DNA of 46,011 bases from a virus. Location: positions 1-46,011 of IMG/VR virus record IMGVR_UViG_3300011494_000001, one strand, 5' to 3'. This document shows positions 1 to 46,011 of the stretch, piece after piece. The position numbers were made by a program, and so were the translations under genes. How positions within the stretch are numbered: the stretch's first letter is position 1; each line of letters begins with the position of its first letter. Under the pieces are notes generated by a model. It did not search any database and was not told the DNA's origin. It saw nothing but the letters and a program-made list of their open reading frames with translations.

Positions 1-77
1 AGCGAGTTCATGCGCCTGCAGGAACGGGCCACGCAGCTTGAGGAGTGGCGGGCGACAGAGCTCGAAAAGCAGCGCGG
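1..77. repeat. Terminal 77-bp sequence identical to 45935..46011 (contig ends overlap; circular or circularly permuted genome, unit 45,934 bp)
   Basis: Read directly: agcgagttcatgcgcctgcagg...gaaaagcagcgcgg occurs at both window ends, 77/77 identical, inside one continuous reading frame. Confidence 0.95.
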
Positions 78-765
78 ATTCCTTGAGGCGAAGGCGATCA
101 ATGAAGAGCAGTACGCCGAGCGCATCCGCAACATCCAGGAGCAACACCAGCAGCAGGTCGAGCAGCTCGAGCAGGCGCGCTATCAGGTCTCGCTGTCCAG
201 CGCGACGGATCTGTTCGGCAACCTGGCCGATATCACCGCGCAGTTCGCCGGCGAGCAGTCCGGTATCTACAAGGCGATGTTCATCGCGCAGAAAGCTTTC
301 GCTATCGCGCAATCGATGATTGCCATTCAGCAGGGCATTGCCCTTGCTGCGGCTAACCCGTGGCCGCTGAACCTCGGCGCTATGGCGTCCGTGGCCGCGG
401 CTACGGCCGGCCTCGTCTCGAACATTGCCTCGGTTGGGCTCTCGTTCGATGGCGGCGGCTACACCGGTAACGGCCCTCGCAGCGGCGGCCTGGATGGAAA
501 GGGCGGATTCCTCGCGATGATGCACCCGCAGGAGACCGTCATCGACCACACCAAGCAGCGCGGAGGGTCTGGAAACGCATCAGATGGCGGCAACGTCGTC
601 GTAAACCTCGTCGAGGATAGCTCCAGAGCTGGACAGGTAGAGCAGACGACAGGGCCTGACGGGGAAAAGGTGCTGCAGCTCTGGGTGGCGAAGATCAGGG
701 CTGGCGGAACGCCAGAGGCGCTTGCGCTTGAGCAGGCATATGGACTGAAGAGGGCGGGCAGATGA
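1..765 (+). CDS. Tail tape measure protein, 3' portion (continues from 44387..46011 across the circular junction)
   Basis: Same codon phase as 44387 frame once the 77-bp overlap is collapsed (pos 10 = pos 45944). Ala/Gly-rich hydrophobic C-terminal region. TGA 763-765 overlaps next ATG (ATGA). Confidence 0.85.
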   Translation, partial: SEFMRLQERATQLEEWRATELEKQRGFLEAKAINEEQYAERIRNIQEQHQQQVEQLEQARYQVSLSSATDLFGNLADITAQFAGEQSGIYKAMFIAQKAFAIAQSMIAIQQGIALAAANPWPLNLGAMASVAAATAGLVSNIASVGLSFDGGGYTGNGPRSGGLDGKGGFLAMMHPQETVIDHTKQRGGSGNASDGGNVVVNLVEDSSRAGQVEQTTGPDGEKVLQLWVAKIRAGGTPEALALEQAYGLKRAGR

Positions 766-2100: not shown

Positions 2101-4775
2101 TCGAGATTTATCCGAGCAAGTTGCCCGGCGCGCCTATCGAAACACACCGCACCCTGCAGCGAATGACGGTCGAGTCATGGCTGCGCGCGAATGTGCCGAG
2201 CTATGAGCAGCGCGAGGCGCCGCCGATCAGCGTCGAGATCAACGGTGTTCTGATTTCACCGGATGCCTGGGTGACTGCTGAGTTCGGGCCTGATGATGTC
2301 GTAGCGATCCGCGTCGAGCCAAAAGGCGTTGAGTCGCTGATCGCGGTCGCAACCATCGTTGCCGCTGTCAGCGTGGTCACAGGGCTGTTCATGCCCAAGT
2401 TGCCTTCCACGCCGAAGAACAACACGACGCAGGGCGACAAGCTGGCCGAGGCAGCGGCCAAGGGCAACAAAATCCGCATCAACTCGCCTATCCGCGAGAT
2501 CGCGGGCCGGCGCAAGGTGTACCCGGACTACCTGACACCGCCGCACCGGTACTTCCAGGCCGGCAGCCCGAAGTCGCAGTGGGTCGAGATGCTGCTGTGC
2601 ATCGGCAAGGGCAAATACCAGATCAACGCCAGCGAGATCCTGGTCGGTGACACGCCTGTCATCTCGCTGGGCGCCGACGCCGAATACGCGATCTATCAGC
2701 CTGGCGCTAGCGTTGCGGCTGAGCGTGCGGCCGATTGGTGGCATACCGCGACCGAGGTTGGTTCAACCAGCAGCGGAACGGCAGGTCTCGAGCTGCGTGC
2801 GACCTATGCGGTTGATCCAGTATCTACTGCCTCGAGCTACATTTTCAGCGGCTACACCATCACCGTTCCCTCTGGCGCTGGCGCGTTCCCGGACGGCTGG
2901 GACGCCGGCATGATCGTGCGCATCGAGCAGTACCTGACGTATACGGTTGGTTCAGACGGCGGCTCTCTCGAGGGCAACCTGACCCAGCTCGAGCCGTTCG
3001 CTGGGATGGTCATCGAGTTGGCTGGCGATATCGCTGGCACATTCGTGATTGCCTCTGTAACCACGGCAGGGCCCTCCGACCCTACGCCTGTTTCGATCGC
3101 CCTGAACTACGAGAACGGCAGCCCCGTGGTTGGCCTGTCGCCGGGCTCTGCACGCCTGGCAATAGGCTACGACGGTATGCGCTACCGCCTGACTGCAGGA
3201 AGCGCAACCGCCATCAGCGTCGATCGGCTCACTGATACCGGGTCTACAGACACGGCATGGAGTGGATTCACTCCGGTGACCATGAGCGATGCAGAGCTGA
3301 CGCTCGACGCCAGCACGCAGGAGGGAGACTGGGCCGGCCCGTTTGCCGTATGCCCGGCAGGCGAGACGACGGATGAACTTGAGTTCGACTTCATGTTCCC
3401 GGGCGGCCTGATCCACATCGGATCGAAGGGGCAGCTGATCGATCGCTCTGTCACGGTTGAGATGCAGTACCGCGACACGGCCACCGCAGGTGCATGGACG
3501 ACCGTTCGGAAGGCCTACACTGCCAAGACGCTGGACCAGCTCGGCTACACCGAGAAAATATCGATTGGCTCTGCTATCAGGCCGGAGGCTCGCGTTCGGC
3601 GTATCGGTGCGAAATCGACAAACCCGAACATCCAGGACACAGTTCAGTGGTACGGCCTGCGGTCAAAGTTGCAGCCACCAACCAGCTATGAGGACGTCAC
3701 GACGCTGGCCATCCGCGTGCGCGGCGGTCATCGCCTGGCATCGCAGTCTGAGCAGCTGGTGTCGGTTGTAGCCACCCGCGTTCTGCCAGTGCGCAACGGT
3801 GGAGCGTGGGATGTCGAAACGCCAACCCGCGACATCGCGCCGTGGTTCGCCTACGTCGCGCATTCGATCGGCTACACGGACGACGATATTGATTTCGAGG
3901 AGCTGGACCGCCTTGATGCAATCTGGCGCGCGCGTGGGGACACGTTCGACGCTGCGATTGATAGCTCTGGCACGGTGAAGGAGTGGCTCAACGACGCGCT
4001 GATGGCTGGCTTCGCCGAGCTAACAGTCGACCGCGGACTGATCCGCCCCGTGCGCGACGAGCCTCGCACGACGTTCGAGCACATGTACACGCCGCAGAAC
4101 ATGACCGAGCAGCTGACGCGCCAGTTCGCGGCGTTCCAGCCTGATGATTTCGACGGCGTAGACGTGGAGTACAGGGACGGCATCACCTGGCAGAAAGAGA
4201 CTGTCGAGTGCCGGCTGCCTGGAGACCTTGGCCGGCGCGTCGAGAAGATCAAGGTCGAGGGGGTGACTGACGAGACGCGCGCCTGGCGCATCGGCATGCG
4301 GCGCAGGATGGAGCAGCTCTATCGCCGCTGGTCGTACTCGTTCAGTACAGAAATGGATGCGCTGAACTCGCGCTACCTGTCGTACTGCGCGCTGGCAGAT
4401 GACGTGCCAGGCTACGGCCAAAGCGCGCTGATGCTTAGCTACGACAGCGGGATCATCGAGTCATCCGAGCCGCTGGACTGGTCGTCGGGCGGCGCCCATG
4501 TGGTCGGCATTCGCCGGCCAGATGGCACGCTTTCCGGTCCATACGCCGCAACGCGGATCGATGACTATCGACTGTCCATCAGCGGCCTGGACTTCGAACC
4601 CGATACCTCGTGGAGCATCGAGCCGCCGCACTTGCTGTTTTGCCCGGTCAATCGCTGGAGCTATCCGGCGCTGATCACGTCTATCAGCCCTAGCGGAACT
4701 GATGGAGCATCGGTCGAGGCGGTCAACTACGACCCGCGCGTCTACACCTACGACAACGCAACGCCGCCAGCCTAA
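2097..4775 (+). CDS. Tail tip / host-specificity protein (gpJ-like, with gpI-like N-terminal region incl. a hydrophobic segment), 892 aa
   Basis: Largest tail ORF directly after the gpK-like gene. N-terminal ~100 aa resembles the small gpI-type domain followed by hydrophobic LIAVATIVAAVSVVTGLF. High GC3. Confidence 0.8.
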   Translation: MIEIYPSKLPGAPIETHRTLQRMTVESWLRANVPSYEQREAPPISVEINGVLISPDAWVTAEFGPDDVVAIRVEPKGVESLIAVATIVAAVSVVTGLFMPKLPSTPKNNTTQGDKLAEAAAKGNKIRINSPIREIAGRRKVYPDYLTPPHRYFQAGSPKSQWVEMLLCIGKGKYQINASEILVGDTPVISLGADAEYAIYQPGASVAAERAADWWHTATEVGSTSSGTAGLELRATYAVDPVSTASSYIFSGYTITVPSGAGAFPDGWDAGMIVRIEQYLTYTVGSDGGSLEGNLTQLEPFAGMVIELAGDIAGTFVIASVTTAGPSDPTPVSIALNYENGSPVVGLSPGSARLAIGYDGMRYRLTAGSATAISVDRLTDTGSTDTAWSGFTPVTMSDAELTLDASTQEGDWAGPFAVCPAGETTDELEFDFMFPGGLIHIGSKGQLIDRSVTVEMQYRDTATAGAWTTVRKAYTAKTLDQLGYTEKISIGSAIRPEARVRRIGAKSTNPNIQDTVQWYGLRSKLQPPTSYEDVTTLAIRVRGGHRLASQSEQLVSVVATRVLPVRNGGAWDVETPTRDIAPWFAYVAHSIGYTDDDIDFEELDRLDAIWRARGDTFDAAIDSSGTVKEWLNDALMAGFAELTVDRGLIRPVRDEPRTTFEHMYTPQNMTEQLTRQFAAFQPDDFDGVDVEYRDGITWQKETVECRLPGDLGRRVEKIKVEGVTDETRAWRIGMRRRMEQLYRRWSYSFSTEMDALNSRYLSYCALADDVPGYGQSALMLSYDSGIIESSEPLDWSSGGAHVVGIRRPDGTLSGPYAATRIDDYRLSISGLDFEPDTSWSIEPPHLLFCPVNRWSYPALITSISPSGTDGASVEAVNYDPRVYTYDNATPPA

Positions 4776-4848
4776 CAACTAGCCAACACCACATACCGGA
4801 CACGGCCCGCAAGGACGCCGTGCGGATTTGCACGCCTGGAGTAAACGC

Positions 4849-6930
4849 ATGACTTTCAATACCGGAAACCCTGTTGGCTCGACCGACGCGCGGGACCTGT
4901 ACGACAACGCGCAGAACTTGGACAAGTTCGCCAACGGCCCAGAGTTGGAATACGAGGATCGTCTTGGTGTGCCGCGCAAGAGCCTGGCTGGTATCAGGCA
5001 GCAGGTAACCGATGCGCTTTCACGTCTCGGCTATCAGATCAAGGGCGACTATGCGGCCGGTCTTCTGATCGAAAATTACGGCGAAGTCTTCCGCAAAGAC
5101 GGCGAGTTTTACCGGGCCAAGGCCGAGCTGACGCTGCCTTATCCACTGAATGGCGATTGGGCAGTCGATGCGCCAAAATTCTTTTCGGTTGGGGATGCGG
5201 TGCTGCGGCAGGAGCTGGCGAATGGCAAGAGTTTTTTGGTCGATAGCGCAGTGGTCGGGTTCAATGGTCGCAGCATTGAAGCCAAGCTTGGGGATTTCAA
5301 GATTTTTGCAGATTTCGGCGCCATTGGCGATGGTCTAAGTCATCCACTATCCGAACGCTTCGCAACGCTCGCAGAAGCACAGACAGTCTACCCATTCGTC
5401 ACTGCGCTTACGGAAGAAATAGACCGCTGCGCAATTCAGCTGGCAGTCAACCAGGCCGCAGACAATGCGACCCTTCTCGGAGGCTCACAGCGCTACAAGA
5501 TTGACGCCCCTGTAACACTTACTGATAAAGGCCCATTGCGAATTGTTGGCGGCGTCTACGACTGGCCCGCTACGTTCACCAACGTCTTTAAGCTAGTGGG
5601 TGAGTGCCATCAGCCAGAGTTCATGTTCTGCGTCTTCCTTGGCGATGGTGTGCCAAGAAGCACAATGGGGGCCATTGGCTGCTCTAGTGGCACAATCACC
5701 AACGACTTGAAAATCAGTTACTGCCGTTTCGACAAAGTACCATTTGGCGCATACATCAACGCCGATTTGTCGGGCATTCATTACAATCCAGAAGTCTCCG
5801 ATTGCACGTTCGTCGACCCTCCCCGGTATTTGGATGACACAAGCGGATCAGGTCTTGGACTGGTGTTTGCGGAAGGGGGTACAGGGCGGATCGTTAACGG
5901 TGTGTCACGAGGGAATACCTTCATCCGCACCGGCCGGCACGCGCTCTACATATCCAACGGCGGTAATGTGCGCTCGATTGGAGATCGCTTCCTTGGCCAC
6001 CGGGACGACGGTAGCCCCCTGATCCAAGAAGGCGGCGCTATTCAGATTTCACGGAACGCGAAAAACGTCACCGTTCTTTGCCCAGTATTTGAGGCATGCA
6101 AGGATACTTGCATCAGCATTACATCTGTGGTGACTGATGGATCTTTAACTTACCCAGAAAACATCAAGGTTTTTAATCCTATCTTCAAAGGCAACTTTGG
6201 AGCCTTGATGCGGTTGGGCAATGATTCACCTTCCGTAAATGGGGTACTTAGCTATGTTGATATCCGAGACATCGAGATTTGGAACCAAGGCGAGGCGGCA
6301 GGTGCTGCGATTTCTATCCTCTCGGGTACAAACATCAGCATTGACGGTGTGACGGTCAGAGAGTTTTCTGGGTCGAGCCAACTTAGTCAGATCATCAGAC
6401 TGTTCGGATACGGAACTGTTGCAGAAACAAACAAAATATCAATCAAGAATGTCAAAGGCACATTCCAGAATTCGTCTGGCTCTGCTGTGTATGTTGATAC
6501 TCGCGTTTGCACAGGTACGGCGCTAGTTGAACTGAACAACATAGACACCAGCGGGATTCCAATTAACTACCAGTCAGCAGTCACCAACACGAACATTCGT
6601 CAAGATTGCGCTCCGGGGCTAATACGTGACTTCCCACGGAGTAATACCGACCCAAACGGAGTATATGCCGCCGATCCGGGTACGTTGTTTGTGTCAAGAG
6701 CGGGCGCAAGCCGATCGGTTTGGATCAAAGAGGCATTGTTCGGAACTTCCGGTTGGTCGCTCCTGAAGACTCGATTGGTAGGCAAGAGCACCACCGCCAA
6801 CCGGCCGGCCCTCACTAGTAGTGCGTATGACATAGGCACTATGTATATGGACACTACGCTGAACGCCAACGGTAAGCCGATCTGGTGGAACGGGGCTGCG
6901 TGGGTTGATTCATCGGGCGCAGCTGTCTGA
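4849..6930 (+). CDS. Tailspike / tail fibre with right-handed beta-helix (pectate-lyase-like) domain; probable polysaccharide depolymerase, 693 aa
   Basis: GGAG 7 nt before ATG 4849 (track start 4828 is TTG). Motif FADFGAIGDG...IDRCAIQLAVNQA is typical of Pectate_lyase_3-type tailspikes. C-terminal ...GKPIWWNGAAWVDSSG motif. Lower GC by eye. Confidence 0.75.
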   Translation: MTFNTGNPVGSTDARDLYDNAQNLDKFANGPELEYEDRLGVPRKSLAGIRQQVTDALSRLGYQIKGDYAAGLLIENYGEVFRKDGEFYRAKAELTLPYPLNGDWAVDAPKFFSVGDAVLRQELANGKSFLVDSAVVGFNGRSIEAKLGDFKIFADFGAIGDGLSHPLSERFATLAEAQTVYPFVTALTEEIDRCAIQLAVNQAADNATLLGGSQRYKIDAPVTLTDKGPLRIVGGVYDWPATFTNVFKLVGECHQPEFMFCVFLGDGVPRSTMGAIGCSSGTITNDLKISYCRFDKVPFGAYINADLSGIHYNPEVSDCTFVDPPRYLDDTSGSGLGLVFAEGGTGRIVNGVSRGNTFIRTGRHALYISNGGNVRSIGDRFLGHRDDGSPLIQEGGAIQISRNAKNVTVLCPVFEACKDTCISITSVVTDGSLTYPENIKVFNPIFKGNFGALMRLGNDSPSVNGVLSYVDIRDIEIWNQGEAAGAAISILSGTNISIDGVTVREFSGSSQLSQIIRLFGYGTVAETNKISIKNVKGTFQNSSGSAVYVDTRVCTGTALVELNNIDTSGIPINYQSAVTNTNIRQDCAPGLIRDFPRSNTDPNGVYAADPGTLFVSRAGASRSVWIKEALFGTSGWSLLKTRLVGKSTTANRPALTSSAYDIGTMYMDTTLNANGKPIWWNGAAWVDSSGAAV

Positions 6931-8328: not shown

Positions 8329-8560
8329 CGTGAGCTCCGTTATGCGTTGCTGATCTGGGCCAAATCTTGGGGCAATTTTTGGGGCAGAGTACGTTTTTTC
8401 GTGGGCCAGTGAGGGCCTGCAGCCCAGTAAATACGTGAAGTTTACCCCGCCAAAACCCCCATTAGAACTGCATGGTGATGTTGGCGGTAGAAATCAAGAG
8501 GCTTTATCTCGCGGGTTTCAGAGGTGTGGGGCTACGCTTGTGGCACTTTTGGGGCAAACT
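8329..8560. other. Probable attP region with three direct T(C/T)TTGGGGCA(A/G) copies (8366-8375, 8378-8387, 8548-8557)
   Basis: Noncoding gap next to int. The repeated decamer is read directly, and the third copy lies within the int 3' end. Core crossover sequence not identifiable without the host site. Confidence 0.4.
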
Positions 8561-9713
8561 GTAATTTGCGCATCTCGGCCCAATCGCCTTCGCCGTCGAT
8601 CCAGCGGGCATACCGAGACAGCAAAATCTGTATCGAATGGCCGAGCTGCTTGGCGATGAATGCCGGTGTCATTCCGGCCATCAGGCACATGGTTGCGTAG
8701 GTGTGGCGCGCATTGTACGGGGGCCGGTAGCGAATACCCAGCGCCTTTAAAGTCGGGCGCCACTGGTGATGCAGGTCACTCGTCTGCTGGATGAACTGAG
8801 AGCTCTTGCTCGGCGGAAAGCAGAACGGGAAGTCAGTCAGCCTGCCGGATCCGGCCGCGCGCCGCTCGGCGTACTGCTTTGCGAACAGAAGGGCATGCAC
8901 TGCCCGATCATTCAGCAGGACAAACCTATCCTTCTTGGTCTTCGTCCGCTCGACGACCTTCTTCTTTGCTACGGACCTGCAGACGTGGACCGTACGCCTC
9001 TTCAAATCGACCTCTTCCCAGCGAAGGGCAGCGATCTCTCCTAACCGCATGCCGGTATAGAAAGCGAACTCGAAGAACGCAGCGTATATCTGGCTGGGCC
9101 AGTGCTCCGTTTCGTAGAGCCTGGCAATGATCCTGTCTGCCTCATCCTGCGTGAACGGGTCAACTTTCGCTTCCGTCCGCGTCGGTATGTCCAGCGCCTG
9201 AATTGGGTTCTCTGCAATCAGCCTGTCCGAAACCGCTGACTCAAGAATGGTGCTCAGCTTGTTCATGGCGTTGGCCTTCACGCCGTCCGAGGTCCATGGG
9301 ATTTGAACGACGAGCTCGCGCATGAAGGCGGTCGTCAGGTTGGGAAGGGGAGTTGTGGCCAGGTACGGCATCCACCAGACATTGAGCACTGACTTGTAGT
9401 TGTCGCGCGTGCCTTCCGAGATCGATCGGCTGTCGAGCCAGACCTGGGCGTACTGTCCGAACCCGCGCGAAACGCTCGATATGGCGTTCGGCGAGCCCGG
9501 GAAGAGCTCGGCATACTTACGCTCGTCGAAGATGCCGTGCTTGATCTGCTGGACTACTTGATCGCGTAGACGGGATGCAGCGGCAATGCCCGCTTGCGTC
9601 GGGGGGAGGGCGAGGGTTTCTGAACATCGCTTCCCGTTCCAGCTGAATCGGATGCGGATCGTATCGTTGCGTAGCTCAACTCCGGTGGGCAGCGCCATAG
9701 GCTTTCTTGCCAT
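8532..9713 (-). CDS. int: Tyrosine integrase, 393 aa
   Basis: N-terminal LPTGVELRNDTIRIRFSWNGKR arm-binding type. C-terminal YTGMRLGEI...ARHTYATMCLMAG...LGHS...LSRYARW (R, H-x-x-R-like, H, Y catalytic pattern). Confidence 0.9.
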   Translation of the reverse strand: MARKPMALPTGVELRNDTIRIRFSWNGKRCSETLALPPTQAGIAAASRLRDQVVQQIKHGIFDERKYAELFPGSPNAISSVSRGFGQYAQVWLDSRSISEGTRDNYKSVLNVWWMPYLATTPLPNLTTAFMRELVVQIPWTSDGVKANAMNKLSTILESAVSDRLIAENPIQALDIPTRTEAKVDPFTQDEADRIIARLYETEHWPSQIYAAFFEFAFYTGMRLGEIAALRWEEVDLKRRTVHVCRSVAKKKVVERTKTKKDRFVLLNDRAVHALLFAKQYAERRAAGSGRLTDFPFCFPPSKSSQFIQQTSDLHHQWRPTLKALGIRYRPPYNARHTYATMCLMAGMTPAFIAKQLGHSIQILLSRYARWIDGEGDWAEMRKLQFAPKVPQA

Positions 9714-29130: not shown

Positions 29131-30266
29131 TGGCCGCACGCAAGCACGACGACGAGACAATCAAGGCCGCGCTGACTGGCCGTACTGTGGCCGAGGCTGC
29201 GCAGATCCTTGGGCTGCACGAGCGCAACGTCTACACCCACAAGGCCAGGCTGGCTCGGCAGGGATGGAGCCCGGAGCACGACATGGTGAAGACGGTGCCG
29301 GATGGCTTCCACCTCAAAGGCACGTCGACGCTCTACGGCAAGGACGGCGAGCAGAAACTGCAGTGGGTCAAGTCAAACATCGATCACGAGCGCCAAGCCG
29401 AACTGATGAAGGAGGCGGTCAAGGCGCTGGCCCTCGACATCAAGCCGGCCAAGGCGCTGCCGGCACCTCTGCACACCCTTGCGCACCTCCTCAACTGCTA
29501 CGTCATCACCGACTACCACCTCGGCATGAATGCCTGGGCGGAGGAGACGGGCGCAGCTTGGGATATGAATATCGCCGAGGACACGCTGGTCGGCTGGTTT
29601 GGTGCCGCCATCGCCCAGGCGCCTGACTCCCATACCGGCGTATTCGCACAGCTCGGGGATCTGTTGCATTGGGATGGTATCCAGGCGGTCACCCCGACAT
29701 CCGGCCACGTTCTCGACGCCGACACTCGGTTCCAGAAGCTGGTCCGCGTGGCAATCAGCGTCATCCGCCGCGTAACGGCCATGCTGCTGCAGAAGCACGA
29801 GCGCGTCGTTCTCCTGATGGCTGAGGGAAACCACGATCTGGCGTCGAGCGCATGGCTGCGCGAGCTGTTCGCCGCCTTGTATGCGGACGAGCCCCGCATC
29901 GAGGTCATCACCCGCCCGGACCCGTACTACTGCATCGAGCACGGCCGCACGTCGCTGTTCTTCCACCACGGCCACAAGAAGCGGATGGACTCCCTCGAGA
30001 CGGTATTCATCGCCAAGTTTCGCGAGGTCTTCGGCCGTACCAAGCACAGCTATGCGCACACCGGCCACCTGCATCACAACGTCCTGCGTGAGACGAACAC
30101 CATGCAGATCGAACAGCACCGCACCCTGGCCGCTCCAGACAGTCACGCGAGCCGCGGCGGGTGGATGAGCGGACGTGACGCCAAGGTCATCACCTACCAC
30201 GCCGAGCACGGCGAAGTGGGGCGAATCATCGTGTCAGCCGACATGCTCAAGGGGGAAGCAGCATGA
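29130..30266 (+). CDS. Metallophosphoesterase (calcineurin-like) with N-terminal HTH region, 378 aa
   Basis: GTG 29130 overlaps TAG, after AAGGGGAGG. HTH-like TVAEAAQILGLHERNVYTHKARL. MPE motifs DYHLG, GDLLHWDG, GNHD, HHGH, GHLHH. Confidence 0.7.
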   Translation: MAARKHDDETIKAALTGRTVAEAAQILGLHERNVYTHKARLARQGWSPEHDMVKTVPDGFHLKGTSTLYGKDGEQKLQWVKSNIDHERQAELMKEAVKALALDIKPAKALPAPLHTLAHLLNCYVITDYHLGMNAWAEETGAAWDMNIAEDTLVGWFGAAIAQAPDSHTGVFAQLGDLLHWDGIQAVTPTSGHVLDADTRFQKLVRVAISVIRRVTAMLLQKHERVVLLMAEGNHDLASSAWLRELFAALYADEPRIEVITRPDPYYCIEHGRTSLFFHHGHKKRMDSLETVFIAKFREVFGRTKHSYAHTGHLHHNVLRETNTMQIEQHRTLAAPDSHASRGGWMSGRDAKVITYHAEHGEVGRIIVSADMLKGEAA

Positions 30267-30808
30267 CCTATCGCAACGTGGTTTCCGCAGTAGTCCGCGC
30301 CCTGGCGTCGGAGGTGATCAACTCGGCGGGCGGCTGTGACTTCGAACCCAAAGTGCAAAAAGCGCGCATTCCTGGTGCCATCTGCGGAAAGGAAGCGGCA
30401 TTCCTGACTGACTGCTGGGTACATGGCCGCCTACATAAGGCGCTGCCGGTAGGCCTGTGGCTGGCTCTCGTGGCCAAGTACAGCACCCATCTGGAGCGCA
30501 AGCATGACGCGATGATGGCGCTTGCCGGGGCTGTGAAGTCTCCGGCGCCCGAGCGGTTCGTTCAGTGTGCCGTCGCCACATGGGCATTCCCGAAGCTGCC
30601 TGGTGCAGAAGGGAAGCGCAGCACGAGCGTATTGCCGGCCGCATGGTATGAGCTTAACCGCTGGGACGAAGATGGTCGCCCGCAAAAGACGCTGGAGCGG
30701 TGGCGTCGGGACATCCGCCGTGACTTGGAGCGGCAGGTGGACCAGGCGCTGGTAGAGGCTCACGAGATACTGGCTGCTGAGGGATTGGTGGCAGGCGAGG
30801 CGGCGTGA
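30263..30808 (+). CDS. Hypothetical protein, 181 aa; positional candidate for the late-gene regulator (lambda Q slot)
   Basis: Last ORF of the nin-like region, 20 nt upstream of a strong promoter. No Q-family motif recognised, so the function is positional inference only. Confidence 0.35.
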   Translation: MTYRNVVSAVVRALASEVINSAGGCDFEPKVQKARIPGAICGKEAAFLTDCWVHGRLHKALPVGLWLALVAKYSTHLERKHDAMMALAGAVKSPAPERFVQCAVATWAFPKLPGAEGKRSTSVLPAAWYELNRWDEDGRPQKTLERWRRDIRRDLERQVDQALVEAHEILAAEGLVAGEAA

Positions 30809-32349: not shown

Positions 32350-32648
32350 ATGCCGATTCGAAAGCCAATCCGCGCTTCAGTCGGCAATGAAATACCAGTT
32401 TCGGGCGCTAAAGGCCGTTTGAATGGATCGCCACCATGCGCCCAACCCAATCCCCGGCCTGCTTGCGATCGGCTACGCGCCACACGCAGCACACTGCGCG
32501 ACTCGGTAACGAGTATCGCCCCTAGGACGCTAGGGGAATCGGGCACTACACCACGAATTCCGGCCCCGCGCCTGCCTCCTAGCTCATAGGCGGATGGCAG
32601 CTGCGTGTGAGGCCGGACCAATCAACTGCCCCATGCGGGATAACCGAG

Positions 32649-32972
32649 ATGCCCAAGATGCCCGAGAAAAGTCCAGAAGTATGGGCTGCGGTCCTCGCAT
32701 GGCTGCACGCTATTGCGCCGAGCCTGTACGCGTTCTGTCTGTCCGTGACTATCGCCGTGCTGCGAGTCGTGTACGGGGGCGGAACTAAGCGGCAGATGGT
32801 GCTCGAGGGCGCTCTGTGTGGATTCGCCACGCTGACCCTGGTCCCGCTGCTCGAGTACTTCGGCCTCCCGCAGAGCATGGCTACGTTCGTCGGCGGTTCG
32901 GTTGGCTTCCTCGGAACAGAAAAGCTCCGTGACCTGGCTATCCGCTGGGGGGAGAAGAAGGCGAGCGCATGA
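32649..32972 (+). CDS. Lambda S-family holin with dual-start motif (MPKMPEK...), 107 aa
   Basis: Compare lambda S: MKMPEK..., ...YLRGRYNGG...TK, ...[22 protein letters not shown]. This ORF: MPKMPEK, VLRVVYGGGTKR, VGFLGTEKLRDLAIRWGEKKAS. Multiple TM segments. Confidence 0.85.
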   Translation: MPKMPEKSPEVWAAVLAWLHAIAPSLYAFCLSVTIAVLRVVYGGGTKRQMVLEGALCGFATLTLVPLLEYFGLPQSMATFVGGSVGFLGTEKLRDLAIRWGEKKASA

Positions 32973-41286: not shown

Positions 41287-41703
41287 ATGTCCGAATCCAA
41301 GATCCACAGCGCCCTTGTTTCGGCCTATGTCGCGTCAGGCGTCATGCCTGCGGCGCGAACGGCATTAGAGGGGAAGGCCTTCACGCCGCCGACCGGGCAG
41401 AGCTGGGCGCGCCTCACCGGCTTGCCAACTGGTCGAGCCCCTGCGGCTCAAGGTAAGAGCGCCGCGCAGGAGTGGACCGGCATTCTTCAGATCGACCTGT
41501 TCCACCCCAAGAACACCGGCCACGCCGGGCTACTGACCGACGTAGACGCGCTGCTGGCTTTCTTCATTTCCGGCAAGCGTCTCGACTACCAAGGCCAGGG
41601 CGTACTGATCCGCCGCGCTGAGCGTTCGCAGATTCGCCAGGAAGACGTCTGGCAGTCGGTCAGCGTCAGCATCTACTGCACCGCCTGGTCATTCCCGGCG
41701 TAA
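41287..41703 (+). CDS. Tail terminator-like protein (DUF4128 / gpU position), 138 aa
   Basis: Last ORF before the major tail gene. Sequence flavour recalled for DUF4128. Confidence 0.55.
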   Translation: MSESKIHSALVSAYVASGVMPAARTALEGKAFTPPTGQSWARLTGLPTGRAPAAQGKSAAQEWTGILQIDLFHPKNTGHAGLLTDVDALLAFFISGKRLDYQGQGVLIRRAERSQIRQEDVWQSVSVSIYCTAWSFPA

Positions 41704-41723
41704 CCACAACCCGAAACACCGCG

Positions 41724-41744
41724 GCCCGCCTTGAGCGGGCTTTT
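41724..41744 (+). terminator. Hairpin/terminator upstream of the major tail gene
   Basis: GCCCGC-cttga-GCGGGC followed by TTTTGCATTT. Confidence 0.6.
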
Positions 41745-41763
41745 GCATTTCTGGAGATAGCAA

Positions 41764-42672
41764 ATGCCCTATGCACAAGGCGTCAATCAGAACACCTACA
41801 TCAAGCTGGAGGGCGTCGGCGGCACTCTCGACCCGGCCGTCGCCTGGATTCCGCTGCGTCTCATCACCAATGGCCTGAGTCAGTCGGTCGAGGAGTTGGA
41901 GTCCGACGAGATGCTGCCAGGACGCCACATGGCAGAGTCCCGCAGCGGCGTTTCCAGCGTGGCCGGCGACCTCGAGGCCGAGCTGACCTACGGCACCTTC
42001 GACATGTTGCTCGAGGCGGCTTTCCACGGCACCTGGACCGCCAACGTCCTGAAGACCGGCAGCACTCGCCGCAAGTTCGCCATCCTCAAGCACAACGAGG
42101 ACATTGGCCGCTGGCTGATCTATCGCGGCTGCGAAGTCGGCAGCGTTGCGATCGACTGTCCGCTGCAGGGCAAGATCGGCATCACCTTCTCCATGATCGG
42201 CACCAAGGAAGAGGCATACGTCTTCGATGGCGTGACCGAGAGCATCGCCGACCCGACCGAAACCGTGATGATGACCACGTTCGAGGGTTCGCTGACCGAA
42301 GGCGGCACCGGCCTGAACCACGCGACCGCGCTGAACCTGTCGCTGGACAACGGCATGGAGGCGATTTACCGCCTGTTCAGCCGCGACGCCTACGACATCA
42401 AGCTGGGCCGCATCAACGTCTCCGGCAGTCTGTCCGCGTACATCGAGGACAACCGCCTGAAGGACAAGTACCTCGGCGAGACCAAGACTCCTCTTGTCGT
42501 GACCCTGACCGATGGCGAGAACAGCTATCAGATCAGCATGACCCAGGCCAAGCTGACGACCTCGAGCGAGGAAGGCAGTGGCGACGATCCGATCATCCAG
42601 AATTACGACTTCCGAGCCTTCAATGACCAGGCGGTCGACACTGAGATCACCATCACCCGCATTCCGGCGTAA
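41764..42672 (+). CDS. Major tail tube protein, 302 aa
   Basis: GGAG SD. Position immediately before the chaperone G/GT pair. Very high GC3. Confidence 0.7.
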   Translation: MPYAQGVNQNTYIKLEGVGGTLDPAVAWIPLRLITNGLSQSVEELESDEMLPGRHMAESRSGVSSVAGDLEAELTYGTFDMLLEAAFHGTWTANVLKTGSTRRKFAILKHNEDIGRWLIYRGCEVGSVAIDCPLQGKIGITFSMIGTKEEAYVFDGVTESIADPTETVMMTTFEGSLTEGGTGLNHATALNLSLDNGMEAIYRLFSRDAYDIKLGRINVSGSLSAYIEDNRLKDKYLGETKTPLVVTLTDGENSYQISMTQAKLTTSSEEGSGDDPIIQNYDFRAFNDQAVDTEITITRIPA

Positions 42673-42681
42673 GGGGCTCGC

Positions 42682-43074
42682 ATGAAACCGAGTGACTTTT
42701 TCACCCGGGCCAAGGCGAACGAGGGGGAGCGCATGCCGCTCTCCCTGCCTGACGGTACGCCAACAGATGAGTGGCTGCAGATCCGCGGCGTGGACTCAGA
42801 TCATTTTCGCCATGCCCTCGATGAATTTCGGCGCAAATCTCTGAGCGCTGCTTCCCTAAAAGATCTGGAAGAAAAAGCCGAGAAGGCAGAGGCGGCAAGG
42901 CTGGAGCTAAATGCCGCGCTCGTGATCGGCTGGTCGTTCGATGCCGAGTTCTCAGAGGCTGCGCTTCTGGAGTTCCTGCGCGAATCCCCCTACATCGCGG
43001 CAGAGGTGGACCGGTTCGCGAGTGACCGCCGCCGTTTTTTTGGGAAACGCTCGACGGGCTCGCCGAAGGACTGA
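42682..43074 (+). CDS. Tail assembly chaperone (gpG-like), 130 aa
   Basis: Position between the tube and tape measure genes. Slippery run near the 3' end. Paralogous to 44044..44394. Confidence 0.7.
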   Translation: MKPSDFFTRAKANEGERMPLSLPDGTPTDEWLQIRGVDSDHFRHALDEFRRKSLSAASLKDLEEKAEKAEAARLELNAALVIGWSFDAEFSEAALLEFLRESPYIAAEVDRFASDRRRFFGKRSTGSPKD

Positions 43075-43394
43075 TCGCGCACGCCGAGCATCAACTAGGA
43101 CTGCTGCGACCAGCCGGGCCGAGGCCGAAGAAAGGGCCGGACAAGCGCATCACAGTCCGCGCGCAGCTGGAAGCCATCGCGGAGAAGACCGGCAAACGTC
43201 CGTCACGTCTGGATGGCCCGCCGTGCCCTCCCGAGCTGGCCTATGTCTGGGAGTGGTACTGCTCAGCCAGGCCGATCGGTTCTCTGGTCGAGCTGAAGGC
43301 ATGGGCGGACCTCTACGGGCACACGCTGAAGCCGCACGAGATCATGCTGCTGCGCCGGCTGGCTTCGGTTGAGCAACGCGTGGCGAGCCAGTAG
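42682..43394 (+). CDS. Tail assembly chaperone GT-type fusion made by programmed -1 frameshift at T TTT TTT (43035..43041)
   Basis: The -1 frame is open from 43041 to TAG 43392-94 (117 codons, hand-translated WETLDGLAEGLIAH...VEQRVASQ) and has no start codon of its own. Confidence 0.65.
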
Positions 43395-43395
43395 G

Positions 43396-43425
43396 GCACC
43401 GATTTGGTAAAGTCGGTGCTTTCTT
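43396..43425 (+). terminator. Rho-independent terminator right after the GT frame
   Basis: GCACCGA-tttggtaaag-TCGGTGC followed by TTTCTT. Confidence 0.6.
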
Positions 43426-43439
43426 AGATGGGGCAACAA

Positions 43440-43631
43440 ATGGACTTCGTTCTTTCGCTAATAATGCTGGCTGCGATGATTGGCCTGTATTTCCTGCCCG
43501 GGCTGATCGCCTACATGCGCGGTCACCACAACGCTGTGTCGATCATGCTGCTCAACCTTTTCCTTGGCTGGACGCTGCTGGGATGGGTTGGCGCGCTCGT
43601 GTGGTCAGCATCGTCGAGCAAGCCGCAATGA
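43440..43631 (+). CDS. Superinfection-immunity (Imm_superinfect-like) membrane protein, 63 aa (alternative start 43428)
   Basis: ...LYFLPGLIAYMRGHHNAVSIMLLNLFLGWTLLGWVGALVWS... matches the two-TM Imm-type motif (recollection of PF14373). Lower GC. Confidence 0.65.
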   Translation: MDFVLSLIMLAAMIGLYFLPGLIAYMRGHHNAVSIMLLNLFLGWTLLGWVGALVWSASSSKPQ

Positions 43632-43987
43632 GGCTCGCTGTCGTATGTGCGGCTGCTGTTCTTGGGCTGGCTGGTTGTGATGCGCGCGAACAGGCCTGTA
43701 ATGACGCTAACGCTGCGTATATGGCAGCTCAGGCACTGGTTGCAGAGCGACTGGTTTCGCCGGTGACAGCTTCCTTCCCGATTGCAGGAGAAAAAGGAGC
43801 GCACGTGGATAAGTCTGACGGGTGCAGGTACTTGATCAGCAGCTACGTGGATTCGCAAAACCTGTTCGGAGCCATGGTGCGCAGCAAGTTCGACGCCATC
43901 ATGGTTCTGTCGCCGAATGGATCGTGGGAGCCGGATGGCTTCAACATATCCGAGTTCCAAGGTAACGGAGCAGTCAAGCGCGACTGA
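43628..43987 (+). CDS. Lipoprotein, 119 aa
   Basis: ATG 43628 overlaps the upstream TGA (ATGA). MRLAVVCAAAVLGLAGC signal peptide plus lipobox. Confidence 0.65.
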   Translation: MRLAVVCAAAVLGLAGCDAREQACNDANAAYMAAQALVAERLVSPVTASFPIAGEKGAHVDKSDGCRYLISSYVDSQNLFGAMVRSKFDAIMVLSPNGSWEPDGFNISEFQGNGAVKRD

Positions 43988-44004
43988 CCGTAAAGACACA
44001 TAAG

Positions 44005-44027
44005 AGCCCGCCTAGTGCGGGCTTTTT
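44005..44027 (+). terminator. Rho-independent terminator after the lipoprotein gene
   Basis: AGCCCGC-ctagt-GCGGGCT followed by TTTTT. Confidence 0.75.
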
Positions 44028-44043
44028 AATGCCCGGAGAAAAG

Positions 44044-44394
44044 ATGCGCCCGCAGGATTTCTACACGAAGACGAGGGCCAGCAAGGGCATTGTTGTCTAT
44101 TTTGCCGACCCTGCAGGTAGCCGGGAGTGGATTCGCATCAGGTCCGTGCTAAGCGATGAGTTCAAGGCGGCCTCGTTGCGAGCTGTAGAAGGCGCAGCGC
44201 ATAGCTCGAATGATTCTGGAAAGCAGAAGACTAGGTGTCTCCGAGCCACTCTCGCCGCTGCGCTCATAGCTGACTGGTCGCTGCCTAGCGAAATCGATCC
44301 AGTCCAGCTGCTCATTGAAGCGCCGCGTCTGCGCCGGCAGATCGAGCGCATAGCTGAAAACCATTCAATGCACTTTGGGGTACGCCATGACTGA
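44044..44394 (+). CDS. Second tail-assembly-chaperone paralog (gpG-like, no T extension), 116 aa
   Basis: GGAG 8 nt before ATG 44044. Aligns by eye with 42682 ORF: M(K/R)P.DF(F/Y)T...W(L/I).IR.V.SD.F...AAL(V/I)..WS. The stop overlaps the tape measure start. Confidence 0.55.
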   Translation: MRPQDFYTKTRASKGIVVYFADPAGSREWIRIRSVLSDEFKAASLRAVEGAAHSSNDSGKQKTRCLRATLAAALIADWSLPSEIDPVQLLIEAPRLRRQIERIAENHSMHFGVRHD

Positions 44395-46011
44395 ATACGC
44401 ACGGTTGGTCGTGGCTGTAGATAGCACCCAAGCCGCAAAGGCGAGAGCCGAACTGGACAAGCTGCCTGGATCTGCGCGTAAGGCGAGTTCAGCGGCAGAT
44501 GGCCTCACTTCTAGTTTCAAGAAGCTTGGCGGCGTTCTTGCCACCTATTTCAGCGTGCGCGAGGTGGTTAGAGCTGCTGAGGCATACACCACAATCAACA
44601 ACCGCTTGCGCTTGGTAACGGCGAGTTCCGAGCAATTTGCGCAAGCTCAGGCCGATCTGTTCCGCATCGCGCAGAATTCTAGGCAGCCGCTTACTGAAAC
44701 TGCCGAGCTTTATCAGCGCATCGCAACCAATCAGAAGGAGCTTGGCCTTACCAGCGCAGGTGTCGCGCGTATTACTGAGGTAATCAACAAGTCTCTTGCC
44801 GTATCAGGAACATCCGCAGACTCGGCAGCTGGCGCGCTTACCCAGCTCGGCCAGGCATTCGCATCTGGCCAGCTGCGCGGTGAGGAACTGAACTCGGTGC
44901 TGGAGAACGCTCCCGCTCTGGCGCAAGCCTTGGCGCGCGGCATGGGTGTTACCGTAGGGCAGCTTCGTGCACTAGGTGCTGAAGGGAAAATTTCTGCGCA
45001 GGCTGTAGTCGACGCTCTGCTCAGCCAGGGAGAGGCGCTGGACCAGCAGTTCGCAACGCTGGCGCCTACTGTTTCTGGCGCAATGACTACGGTCGGCAAT
45101 GCGTTTGTCCAACTCGTTGGGCAGATGGACCAAACCACTGGCGCCTCGGCAAATGCTGCTGCCGAGATCATGAAACTGGCCGACATCCTGTCCGATCCTG
45201 CGACGGTGAAAGCGGCCCAAGATCTCGCGGCCGGCATCGCAACTGCACTTGGCTGGGTCGTAGAGGCTGCGACGTCTACCGTTGGCGCCGTCCAGTGGAT
45301 GGCCGAAGAGCTGACGGTTCTGTTCAACGGGATCGGCTTGCATGACATTGACCGCCTCGAGCAGGAAGCGTCTCGTCTGCAAGAGCTGCTCAACAAGATG
45401 GAGCAGCGCGGAGAAACAGGATACGCGATCTACGGAAGCACGAAGGAAAGCTACGACAAGGTAAAACGGCAGCTCGACCAGGCATACGAACTCGCGGATC
45501 TTGCCTCAACGCTTCAGTCAGGCAGTGGTTCGCCTGTTCCGGCAGCTGCGGCTCAGCGCCCGGCGCTCAGGATGGCTAGCAGCGGAACGGGAGTTGTAGA
45601 AAAAGAAATCAGCAATTCAAAAGCTCTGCAGGCGCAGCTCAAAGCTGAACTAGCAGCCAAGCGCGAGTTGACCGCGCAAGAGCAGATCCGCATCGACATC
45701 CTGCGCGAGTCAGGCCAGCTACGCGCCGCCAATGACGCGCAGTTCCAGCTGGAGTACGCCGAGAAAATCGCCGAGTACGAACGCCAGGGCAATGTCGAGG
45801 CGTTGCAGAGGCTGGAAACGCTGCGCCGCATCCGCGAAGTGCAGATGAACGCCGACCAGGCTCCCGGGACGGTTGAAGGCGTCACCAAGGCGCCGAACTC
45901 CGGTGTCGTCTCGCCAGAAATCGGCGGTGCCGCTAGCGAGTTCATGCGCCTGCAGGAACGGGCCACGCAGCTTGAGGAGTGGCGGGCGACAGAGCTCGAA
46001 AAGCAGCGCGG
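44387..46011 (+). CDS. Tail tape measure protein, 5' portion (runs off the window end, continues at 1..765; ~770 aa in total)
   Basis: Hand translation with no stop to the window end. ...TQLGQAFASGQLRGEELNSVLENAPALAQALARGMGVTVGQLRALGAEGKISAQ... is the conserved TMP N-terminal motif. Not in the ORF track because it lacks a stop. Confidence 0.85.
   Translation, partial: MTEYARLVVAVDSTQAAKARAELDKLPGSARKASSAADGLTSSFKKLGGVLATYFSVREVVRAAEAYTTINNRLRLVTASSEQFAQAQADLFRIAQNSRQPLTETAELYQRIATNQKELGLTSAGVARITEVINKSLAVSGTSADSAAGALTQLGQAFASGQLRGEELNSVLENAPALAQALARGMGVTVGQLRALGAEGKISAQAVVDALLSQGEALDQQFATLAPTVSGAMTTVGNAFVQLVGQMDQTTGASANAAAEIMKLADILSDPATVKAAQDLAAGIATALGWVVEAATSTVGAVQWMAEELTVLFNGIGLHDIDRLEQEASRLQELLNKMEQRGETGYAIYGSTKESYDKVKRQLDQAYELADLASTLQSGSGSPVPAAAAQRPALRMASSGTGVVEKEISNSKALQAQLKAELAAKRELTAQEQIRIDILRESGQLRAANDAQFQLEYAEKIAEYERQGNVEALQRLETLRRIREVQMNADQAPGTVEGVTKAPNSGVVSPEIGGAASEFMRLQERATQLEEWRATELEKQR
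45935..46011. repeat. Copy of the 77-bp end overlap (identical to 1..77)
   Basis: Direct comparison of the two window ends. Confidence 0.95.

Follow-up and report, generated by a model that had tools for sequence, protein, structure and literature searches.

The present study concerns a small gene cassette in the tail operon of a phage held as the IMG/VR virus record IMGVR_UViG_3300011494_000001. The whole record of 46,011 nt was analysed and is called here the window. The cassette encodes an inner-membrane protein of the Imm_superinfect family (63 aa, 43440-43631) and a lipoprotein (119 aa, 43628-43987), and it lies between two paralogous genes for tail assembly chaperones (TACs). On the + strand, the tail tube gene (41764-42672, 302 aa; PF18906 Phage_tube_2, E 3e-42; phrog_290) is followed by G, the canonical chaperone (42682-43074, 130 aa; phrog_313 TAC, E 1e-25), in which a slippery heptamer, T_TTT_TTT, for a -1 frameshift was read from the sequence in frame at 43035-43041. 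The T extension (43041-43394) stays open in the -1 frame to the TAG at 43392-43394, brings the GT fusion to ~237 aa in total and matches PF23812 Phage_TAC_18 (E 1e-9). Next comes a hairpin followed by UUUCUU (43396-43425, strong stem 43396-43419), and overlapping it is a promoter-like motif, TTTGGTAAAGT (43403-43413), a candidate extended -10 promoter (TGnTAnnnT) by its conservation. The two cassette genes are closed by an intrinsic terminator (44005-44027, AGCCCGC-CTAGT-GCGGGCT-TTTT). Beyond it lies the second chaperone gene, here called G' (44044-44394, 116 aa), which has no frameshift and is preceded by a conserved Shine-Dalgarno (SD) sequence, GGAGAAAAG. The gene for the tape measure protein (TMP; PF20155 TMP_3, E 3e-65) has its N-terminal 541 codons at 44387-46011 and continues at window positions 1-765. 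An initial annotation of this DNA had described an interruption of the G/GT-tape measure order by these elements, and each of them was recovered at or near the place assigned to it. The coupling it proposed between G' and the tape measure start holds in the form of an 8-nt overlap (ATGACTGA; TMP start at ATG 44387) and not as an ATGA junction.

The membrane protein gave 68 bits with PF14373 in a hidden Markov model (HMM) search, against a gathering cutoff of 27.9 (E 6e-19, profile positions 1-41 of 42), and it also matches phrog_1039, 'immunity to superinfection' (E 1.5e-23). By hydropathy only (Kyte-Doolittle windows >1.5), two hydrophobic segments were seen at residues ~1-26 and 31-56 of the 63 aa. 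Thus the earlier description of a 63-aa, Imm_superinfect-like protein with two transmembrane (TM) segments was borne out. Translation from ATG 43440 (SD GGGG, 63 aa) is better supported than from ATG 43428 (67 aa), because the relatives start there. PADLOC returned no matches for the Imm protein, the lipoprotein, G or G'. Taken together, the protein of the window is most likely an inner-membrane superinfection-exclusion factor, predicted to block genome entry.

The lipoprotein gene is joined to the Imm gene by an ATGA overlap at 43628-43631, and the lipobox LAGC was read from the sequence after the signal peptide MRLAVVCAAAVLGLAG, which ends directly before the Cys; both features had been noted before and both are present. 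The protein matches phrog_13160, a family of unknown function. Its C-terminal domain of ~85 aa carries the motif LKSPxTAxFP...YVDSQNxFGA, and at E <= 1e-3 the family comprises 2449 related 50%-identity clusters that share YVDSQNxFGA; a look-up of these homologue clusters returned no names. No Pfam, PADLOC or PDB sequence match was found for the lipoprotein, the PDB having been searched with a lipoprotein profile. The YVDSQNxFGA domain is put forward as a candidate new domain family, one without a Pfam model. Related motifs (VNAKNSYGGY) were seen by eye in lipoproteins at the same position in the related loci L009, L010 and L056. An AlphaFold2 model of the lipoprotein (predicted local distance difference test, pLDDT, 92) shows a 103-aa folded domain, and the best PDB matches in Foldseek were NTF2-like folds, weak ones at E ~0.06, so that an NTF2-like cone is predicted. 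The resemblance to the exclusion lipoproteins Llp and Cor that had been suggested is not borne out by any of these searches. The residue at +2 after the lipidated Cys is Asp (LAGC-D), as it is in the close homologues of L002 and L027, whereas the other lipoproteins at this position have Ala or Ser. In E. coli Asp at +2 is a signal for retention in the inner membrane, a rule which may not apply in Pseudomonas.

It was also considered whether the two proteins form a two-component spanin (Rz/Rz1), and this was rejected on both structure and locus. An i-spanin is anchored by one N-terminal TM helix and extends a long coiled coil into the periplasm, an o-spanin is a short proline-rich lipoprotein, and the pair is found in the lysis cassette. 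Here, the 63-aa membrane protein crosses the membrane with two TM segments and lacks a periplasmic domain, the lipoprotein forms a folded domain of 103 aa, and the pair sits in the tail operon while the holin gene is at 32607-32972.

The question of what kind of element this is was addressed by comparison with relatives. From the G' family, 60 homologues led to ~55 loci in metagenomes, IMG/VR and genomes, onto which the window proteins were mapped; the scan of genome contigs gave 4 loci and that of viral contigs 45. Among the relatives are Stutzerimonas stutzeri KOS6 and an S. degradans prophage. GenBank phages gave no match in a near-identity search and only short tube and TMP matches in a distant one. 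About 40 distinct related loci were compared, with 39 distinct GT-G' intervals. The order tube - G - T ... G' - TMP was found in every locus extending far enough, including a distant group with ~40% tube identity.

What lies between the T stop and the G' ATG, by contrast, is different from one locus to the next. The 39 forms of this interval range from -4 nt to 4709 nt. At the lower end is L023, an empty site without a hairpin, where the GT stop and the G' start share an ATGA. Intervals of 287-291 nt hold Imm alone; those of ~380-690 nt hold one lipoprotein, or Imm and a lipoprotein; and those of ~790-930 nt hold two genes or a single larger membrane-protein gene (L028). In L020 the slot reaches up to 2.3 kb (about 2725-5001) and has a HicA toxin gene (PF07927) and one for a DUF1902/HicB-like protein upstream of two lipoprotein genes. 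The insert of L046 (288-5001) measures 4.7 kb and includes genes on the reverse strand and an open reading frame (ORF) of 343 aa. Besides Imm, the cargo includes small TM proteins, Zn-ribbon membrane proteins and lipobox proteins of at least six unrelated families, of which two are BamE-like; an Imm or lipobox ORF is encoded in at least 27 of the 39 intervals. Imm and the lipoprotein do not depend on each other for their presence: Imm stands alone in L018, L024, L031 and L032 and is accompanied by other genes in L008, and L026, L030, L034 and L040 lack Imm but carry a distant homologue of the lipoprotein, at 36-37% identity. A link between the type of cargo and the type of TMP was tried and rejected, since L027 carries the same Imm and lipoprotein cargo with a TMP only 39% identical.

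This presence/absence and content polymorphism, which the initial annotation had named as a check at the G/GT-TMP junction, falls exactly between GT and G'. It indicates that neither of the two small genes is a core tail gene and that both are accessory cargo, in other words a moron. The cassette sits between genes that are adjacent in a relative, as the overlap of the GT stop with the G' ATG in L023 demonstrates, and it has a terminator of its own (44005-44027) with equivalents in all occupied slots. As regards the alternative that all four genes are universal core tail genes, both chaperones are conserved in every relative, but the two small genes are not. We consider it probable that the cassette as a whole is a moron and occupies a hypervariable slot which the tail operon dedicates to accessory cargo, on a backbone of the form tube - G - GT - [slot] - G' - TMP.

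It should be noted here that such cargo could also consist of lysogenic-conversion factors unrelated to exclusion, acting in envelope stress, serum or predation resistance or adhesion, with the slot serving as a general site for envelope genes that benefit the host. Bor and Lom of lambda are lysogenic-conversion envelope factors of this type. Lipoproteins of diverse types, BamE-like ones among them, dominate the cargo in the relatives and match no known defence family, and the lipoprotein domain family is huge, so it is probably not phage-restricted. Still, we regard this possibility as rather unlikely, in view of the exclusion function for which the Imm family proteins are named and of HK97 gp15, an exclusion protein encoded at the same junction. 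In addition, superinfection-exclusion (Sie) lipoproteins targeting TMPs are known; TP-J34 Ltp is one, and passages of PMC10883804 link both Ltp and HK97 gp15, as siphophage exclusion proteins, to the TMP of the incoming phage.

If the cassette is a moron in a dedicated slot, the boundaries of that slot deserve attention. On the right, the second strong terminator of the earlier description is present and closes the cassette (-16.3 kcal/mol, z = -3.1). A GC-rich hairpin with a T-run lies ~18-23 nt upstream of the G' ATG in every occupied slot and is absent from the empty site L023. The stems vary and yet remain self-complementary (AGCCCGC/GCGGGCT, ACCCGC/GCGGGT, GCCGCC/GGCGG, CCCCGC/GCGGGG, GCCTCGC/GCGGGGC, CCCAGC/GCTGGG), and after the terminator comes a conserved CATGCCyGGAGAAAAG which carries the SD of G'. 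A strict per-sequence hairpin script found the terminator at 30 of the 39 occupied right boundaries (40 boundaries with L023); the rest are visible by eye, the script having missed 9 obvious terminators with stems extending into the T-run. The background of terminator-like hairpins elsewhere in the loci is 0.012 per 70 nt.

The left boundary gave a different picture. The hairpin at 43396-43425, which had been taken as a first terminator, is indeed stable (minimum free energy -18.1 kcal/mol, z = -4.2), but structural conservation of its stem is not significant, and the promoter-like motif lies inside it. TTTGGTAnnnT has a single match in the whole window (43403-43413), within this hairpin and the slot. 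It occurs shortly after the T stop in about two thirds of the loci, and its 37 matches in the fetched loci are nearly all single, on the + strand and within the slot, typically ~25-35 nt upstream of a + strand envelope gene. In L008, L021, L046 and L056, whose slots open with other genes, the motif is found ~25-35 nt before an internal envelope gene on the + strand. When 20 distinct versions were aligned, TTTG.TA...T proved to be exactly the set of invariant columns, with the second G conserved at 90%. This pattern is read as an extended -10 element, TGnTAnnnT, and thus as a candidate sigma-70 promoter of the cassette. A sigma-54 reading of TTTGGTA...GC was rejected, as relatives differ by 1 nt in the distance from GG to GC; it is also disfavoured by the invariant T six bases after TA, which fits a -10 hexamer and not a -24/-12 promoter.

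It could be argued that the left hairpin is a true terminator or attenuator of tube-G-GT transcription and that the cassette, without a promoter of its own, relies entirely on the late operon for its expression. Its stability, the UUUCUU that follows it and, in some relatives, A-U to G-C changes that preserve the pairing would fit such a role. However, pairing across the 20 relatives is 71.4% compared with 69.2 +/- 1.5% in shuffled controls, and 45 of 500 shuffles were as high; L018, L031 and L047 keep the motif and not the stem; the motif accompanies cargo genes even where it does not adjoin GT; and the U-tract of the hairpin is interrupted. We find this explanation hard to favour and hold it improbable. 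Because the motif is conserved and travels with the cargo while the covariation of the hairpin is not above shuffled controls, the element appears better read as primarily the promoter region of the cassette, with a hairpin potential that is secondary and possibly incidental.

The gene on the far side of the slot, G', had been proposed as a second gpG-like chaperone paralog, and both homology and a TAC-like fold support this. BLASTP aligned it with G at 29% identity (E 9e-17) and hhalign over the full length with a probability of 99.2% (E 1e-19). G' has no Pfam or PHROG family match, and a PDB sequence search with a G' profile gave nothing significant. Its AlphaFold model (pLDDT 83) has the HK97 TAC 2OB9 as the top PDB match in Foldseek (probability 0.97), at a modest TM-score (template modelling score) of 0.43-0.46, and in BFVD it matched TACs with E 4e-6 to 1e-3, these being viral proteins annotated as tail or tape-measure chaperones. 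Only the first chaperone has the slippery site and the T extension, as had been noted: T_TTT_TTY is in frame at codons 117-119 of G in 25 of 25 distinct relatives, while G' has no conserved in-frame X_XXY_YYZ heptamer (18 of the 25 have none). There is no room for a T extension on G', since TMP starts inside its 3' end. A G'-TMP frameshift fusion was also considered, and it was rejected because neither the relative frame nor the spacing of G' and TMP is constant from one relative to another. Phages Almagne, Mallos and pVco-14, which have the canonical tube-G(T)-TMP order, each encode a single TAC, to which G is 43-45% and G' only 30-36% identical; G is therefore the canonical orthologue and G' the extra, more divergent paralog. 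Since G' is present even where the slot is empty (L023), it did not arise as a by-product of insertion.

With which neighbours each chaperone is inherited was examined by Spearman correlation of pairwise-identity vectors from 36 distinct loci. G' correlates with TMP (rho 0.60) and weakly with tube, G and T (0.25-0.31). TMP is uncorrelated with tube, G and T (0.08-0.10), and tube correlates with G (0.51) and with T (0.65). In line with this, G is 80-90% identical among phages whose TMP N-termini are only 33-37% identical, and G/GT as such stays 80-100% identical. The co-variation is thus split, G' going with TMP and G/T with tube, and the mosaic joint of the tail module therefore lies in the slot. 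The GC (guanine plus cytosine) content and the GC content at third codon positions (GC3) drop at ~43400 and do not recover within G' or the TMP N-terminus: GC is 0.57 in the cassette compared with 0.61 in the genome and 0.66 in T, and it is likewise low in G' (0.57) and in the TMP N-terminus (0.60). As to which chaperone serves the tape measure, a partial answer would be that G' is inherited with TMP and G/GT with tube; we infer from these sequence comparisons that G' is probably the TMP-matched one.

G' might instead be no working chaperone at all. It could be a duplicate in decay, or it could have taken on a new role, such as that of a counter-defence decoy which protects TMP. The absence of a family match, the absence of a frameshift and a divergence greater than that of G would be expected of such a protein. 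They have to be set against 60 homologues in which G' is kept at full length, 20 residues do not vary, the SD is conserved and the gene is tightly coupled to the start of TMP, and against the retained TAC-like fold. The conservation at full length together with the fold excludes a decaying duplicate, though it does not cover a new role, and we judge the proposal as a whole quite unlikely. A further idea builds on G' as a chaperone, and we put it forward tentatively, as possible but on balance doubtful: the function of a lambda-type chaperone may be split, such that G' coats and co-evolves with TMP, while G/GT, relieved of direct TMP recognition, docks on G' through G-G' hetero-oligomerisation and recruits tube through T. 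The tube and TMP sides would then be freely recombinable at one joint, which became a promoter-to-terminator slot for envelope genes, many of whose cargos may be new exclusion proteins.

The weakest of the explanations is an obligate two-component exclusion system, Imm with an outer-membrane Llp/Cor-like lipoprotein, that arrived with the chaperone genes or by recombination between them and left the second chaperone redundant: the family membership of the membrane protein, the ATGA coupling of the two genes, the homology of G and G' and the GC shifts at the junction agree with it, but G/GT and G' are in every relative, the ~40%-tube-identity loci and L023 included, Imm and lipoprotein homologues occur separately, the lipoprotein lacks a sequence or fold link to known exclusion lipoproteins and its Asp at +2 would, if the E. 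coli rule holds in Pseudomonas, signal inner-membrane retention, so that comparative genomics has largely refuted this model and it is very improbable.

A moron in a dedicated slot suggests the following mode of action. In the repressed prophage, the extended -10 element would drive expression of the cargo, and the right terminator would keep this prophage transcription out of G'-TMP. Imm in the inner membrane would block genome entry of superinfecting phages, the role for which the family is named, and the lipoprotein could be an independent second envelope factor on the periplasmic side. Late transcription would read through the slot terminator and the pre-tube terminator, presumably by antitermination. 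During tail assembly G' would act as the TMP-matched chaperone, with GT supplying the tube-recruiting T domain. No homologue of the Q antiterminator was recognised by PHROGs or Pfam in the nin-to-lysis region. A 181-aa ORF at 30263-30808 (phrog_3412, unknown function) stands at the usual position of Q, between the nin-like genes and the lysis/terminase genes. It is a candidate for the late regulator that would allow reading through the terminators of the operon.

Several points weigh against the interpretation of the cassette as a moron with boundaries of its own. A single empty-site locus, L023, was found. A terminator-like hairpin (41723-41741) is also found upstream of the tube gene, where there is no cargo, and the terminators may therefore be native punctuation of the operon rather than moron-borne. 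No -35 element was found at the candidate promoter, and a generic promoter scan had no matches. The motif could owe part of its conservation to hitch-hiking with the 3' end of T, which is itself very conserved, and the co-variation of G' with TMP could be plain linkage of overlapping genes.

The same 77 nt are found at both ends of the window, at positions 1-77 and 45935-46011, an overlap from circular assembly. The record is therefore a complete phage genome of ~45.9 kb, in which the TMP gene is intact across the junction. It encodes NinB, a resolvase, a holin and terminase genes, with a candidate integrase ORF at 8532-9713. It is a lambdoid-style temperate siphophage of the Pseudomonas/Stutzerimonas type, and the region at 43.4-44.0 kb belongs to its proximal tail operon. 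Rfam and tRNA scans gave no matches. The tail terminator gene (41287-41703, + strand, PF13554) precedes the tube gene, and between these two a second variable slot was noticed. It is empty in the window (41703-41764), where the hairpin is followed by a conserved TTTGCATTTCTGGAGAtAGCAAATG, and in relatives it holds 0.9-2.4 kb of cargo (L002, 2352-3256; L036, 851-2653; L042, 53-2474), including by eye a small reverse-strand ORF resembling a helix-turn-helix regulator and two large ORFs of 188 and 384 aa. The tube gene itself has an in-frame insertion of roughly 150-250 nt after residue ~91-128 in L005 (3614-4780), L012, L020, L024, L032, L035, L036 and L056. The tube protein of L005 has 388 aa compared with 302 aa in the window, and the insertion may be an added surface domain.

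Part of this arrangement is already known. A moron at the gene 15 junction of HK97 has been described, and an Imm-family gene is annotated at such a junction in a RefSeq Pseudomonas phage. The cassette is in this respect an ordinary moron in a known position. The architecture, with a fixed extra chaperone and a slot that runs from a candidate promoter to a terminator, appears undescribed; a full-text literature search found no description of a fixed second G paralog. Two aspects are new. The fixed G' beside the tape measure offers a natural system for separating TMP recognition from tube recognition within the G/GT function. The slot, with conserved promoter-like and terminator boundaries, has ~40 alternative cargos, nearly all of them small lipoproteins or membrane proteins of unknown function, and these form a catalogue of candidate exclusion or envelope-remodelling proteins that includes the very large YVDSQNxFGA lipoprotein family.

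Among known systems, gene 15 of HK97 is similar in position and size. In the HK97 record gp13/GT is followed by gp15 (62 aa), a putative terminator and, 12 nt later, TMP. Both genes lie between the G/GT chaperone and TMP genes and encode inner-membrane proteins of 62-63 aa, both have a terminator 12-20 nt before the next tail gene, and both are absent from related phages. They differ in that gp15 is YebO-like (PF13974) and not of the Imm family, BLASTP finding no alignment with the Imm protein of the window, and in that HK97 has one cargo gene, no second chaperone and a terminator directly adjoining TMP. Since the two proteins are non-homologous, they are alike only in position and architecture. 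It was for HK97 gene 15 that the term moron was coined (Juhala et al. 2000; Cumby et al. 2012; reviewed in PMC3594210), and the product of this gene is an inner-membrane exclusion protein.

Similarity in sequence is found elsewhere. The window protein matches PF14373, the family of T4 Imm, well above threshold, and it has the same size class and two hydrophobic helices. T4 Imm, the founding member of Imm_superinfect, is an early-expressed protein of a lytic, contractile-tailed phage; the window gene, in contrast, sits in the tail operon of a temperate siphophage. The P. aeruginosa siphophage YMC11/02/R656 (NC_028657) combines both likenesses, with an Imm-domain gene, 'immunity to superinfection', of 57% identity at its T-TMP junction. 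Unlike the window gene, this one encodes 195 aa with an extra C-terminal region, has neither a lipoprotein gene nor G' beside it and belongs to a different tail module. In the same phage (NC_028657.1, 3174-4570 of locus L061) the annotation 'tail length tape measure protein' is given to the two small genes that separate the major tail protein gene from the Imm-domain gene, and these occupy the positions expected for G and T.

The G/GT tail assembly chaperones of the lambda type, reportedly the subject of work by Xu et al. in 2004 and 2013, are matched here by a G gene with a -1 frameshift T extension between tube and TMP, and G' has the fold of G. The lambda arrangement has a canonical single G, whereas here a frameshift-less G paralog is fixed next to TMP with a cargo slot in between. 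With the lipoproteins T5 Llp, Cor of phi80, N15 and HK022, and TP-J34 Ltp, the lipoprotein of the window shares the lipobox and the phage or prophage origin, and its action, too, may be directed at incoming phage at the envelope; it was not found to resemble any of them in sequence or fold, and its predicted fold is an NTF2-like cone. Hotspots for accessory or defence genes in temperate phages and satellites, such as those of P2 and P4 (Rousset et al. 2022, cited in PMC10884400), likewise have conserved flanks around highly variable cargo. The slot described here differs in lying inside a tail structural operon, in having shared promoter-like and terminator boundaries, and in a cargo that consists almost entirely of small envelope proteins and not of cytoplasmic defence systems.

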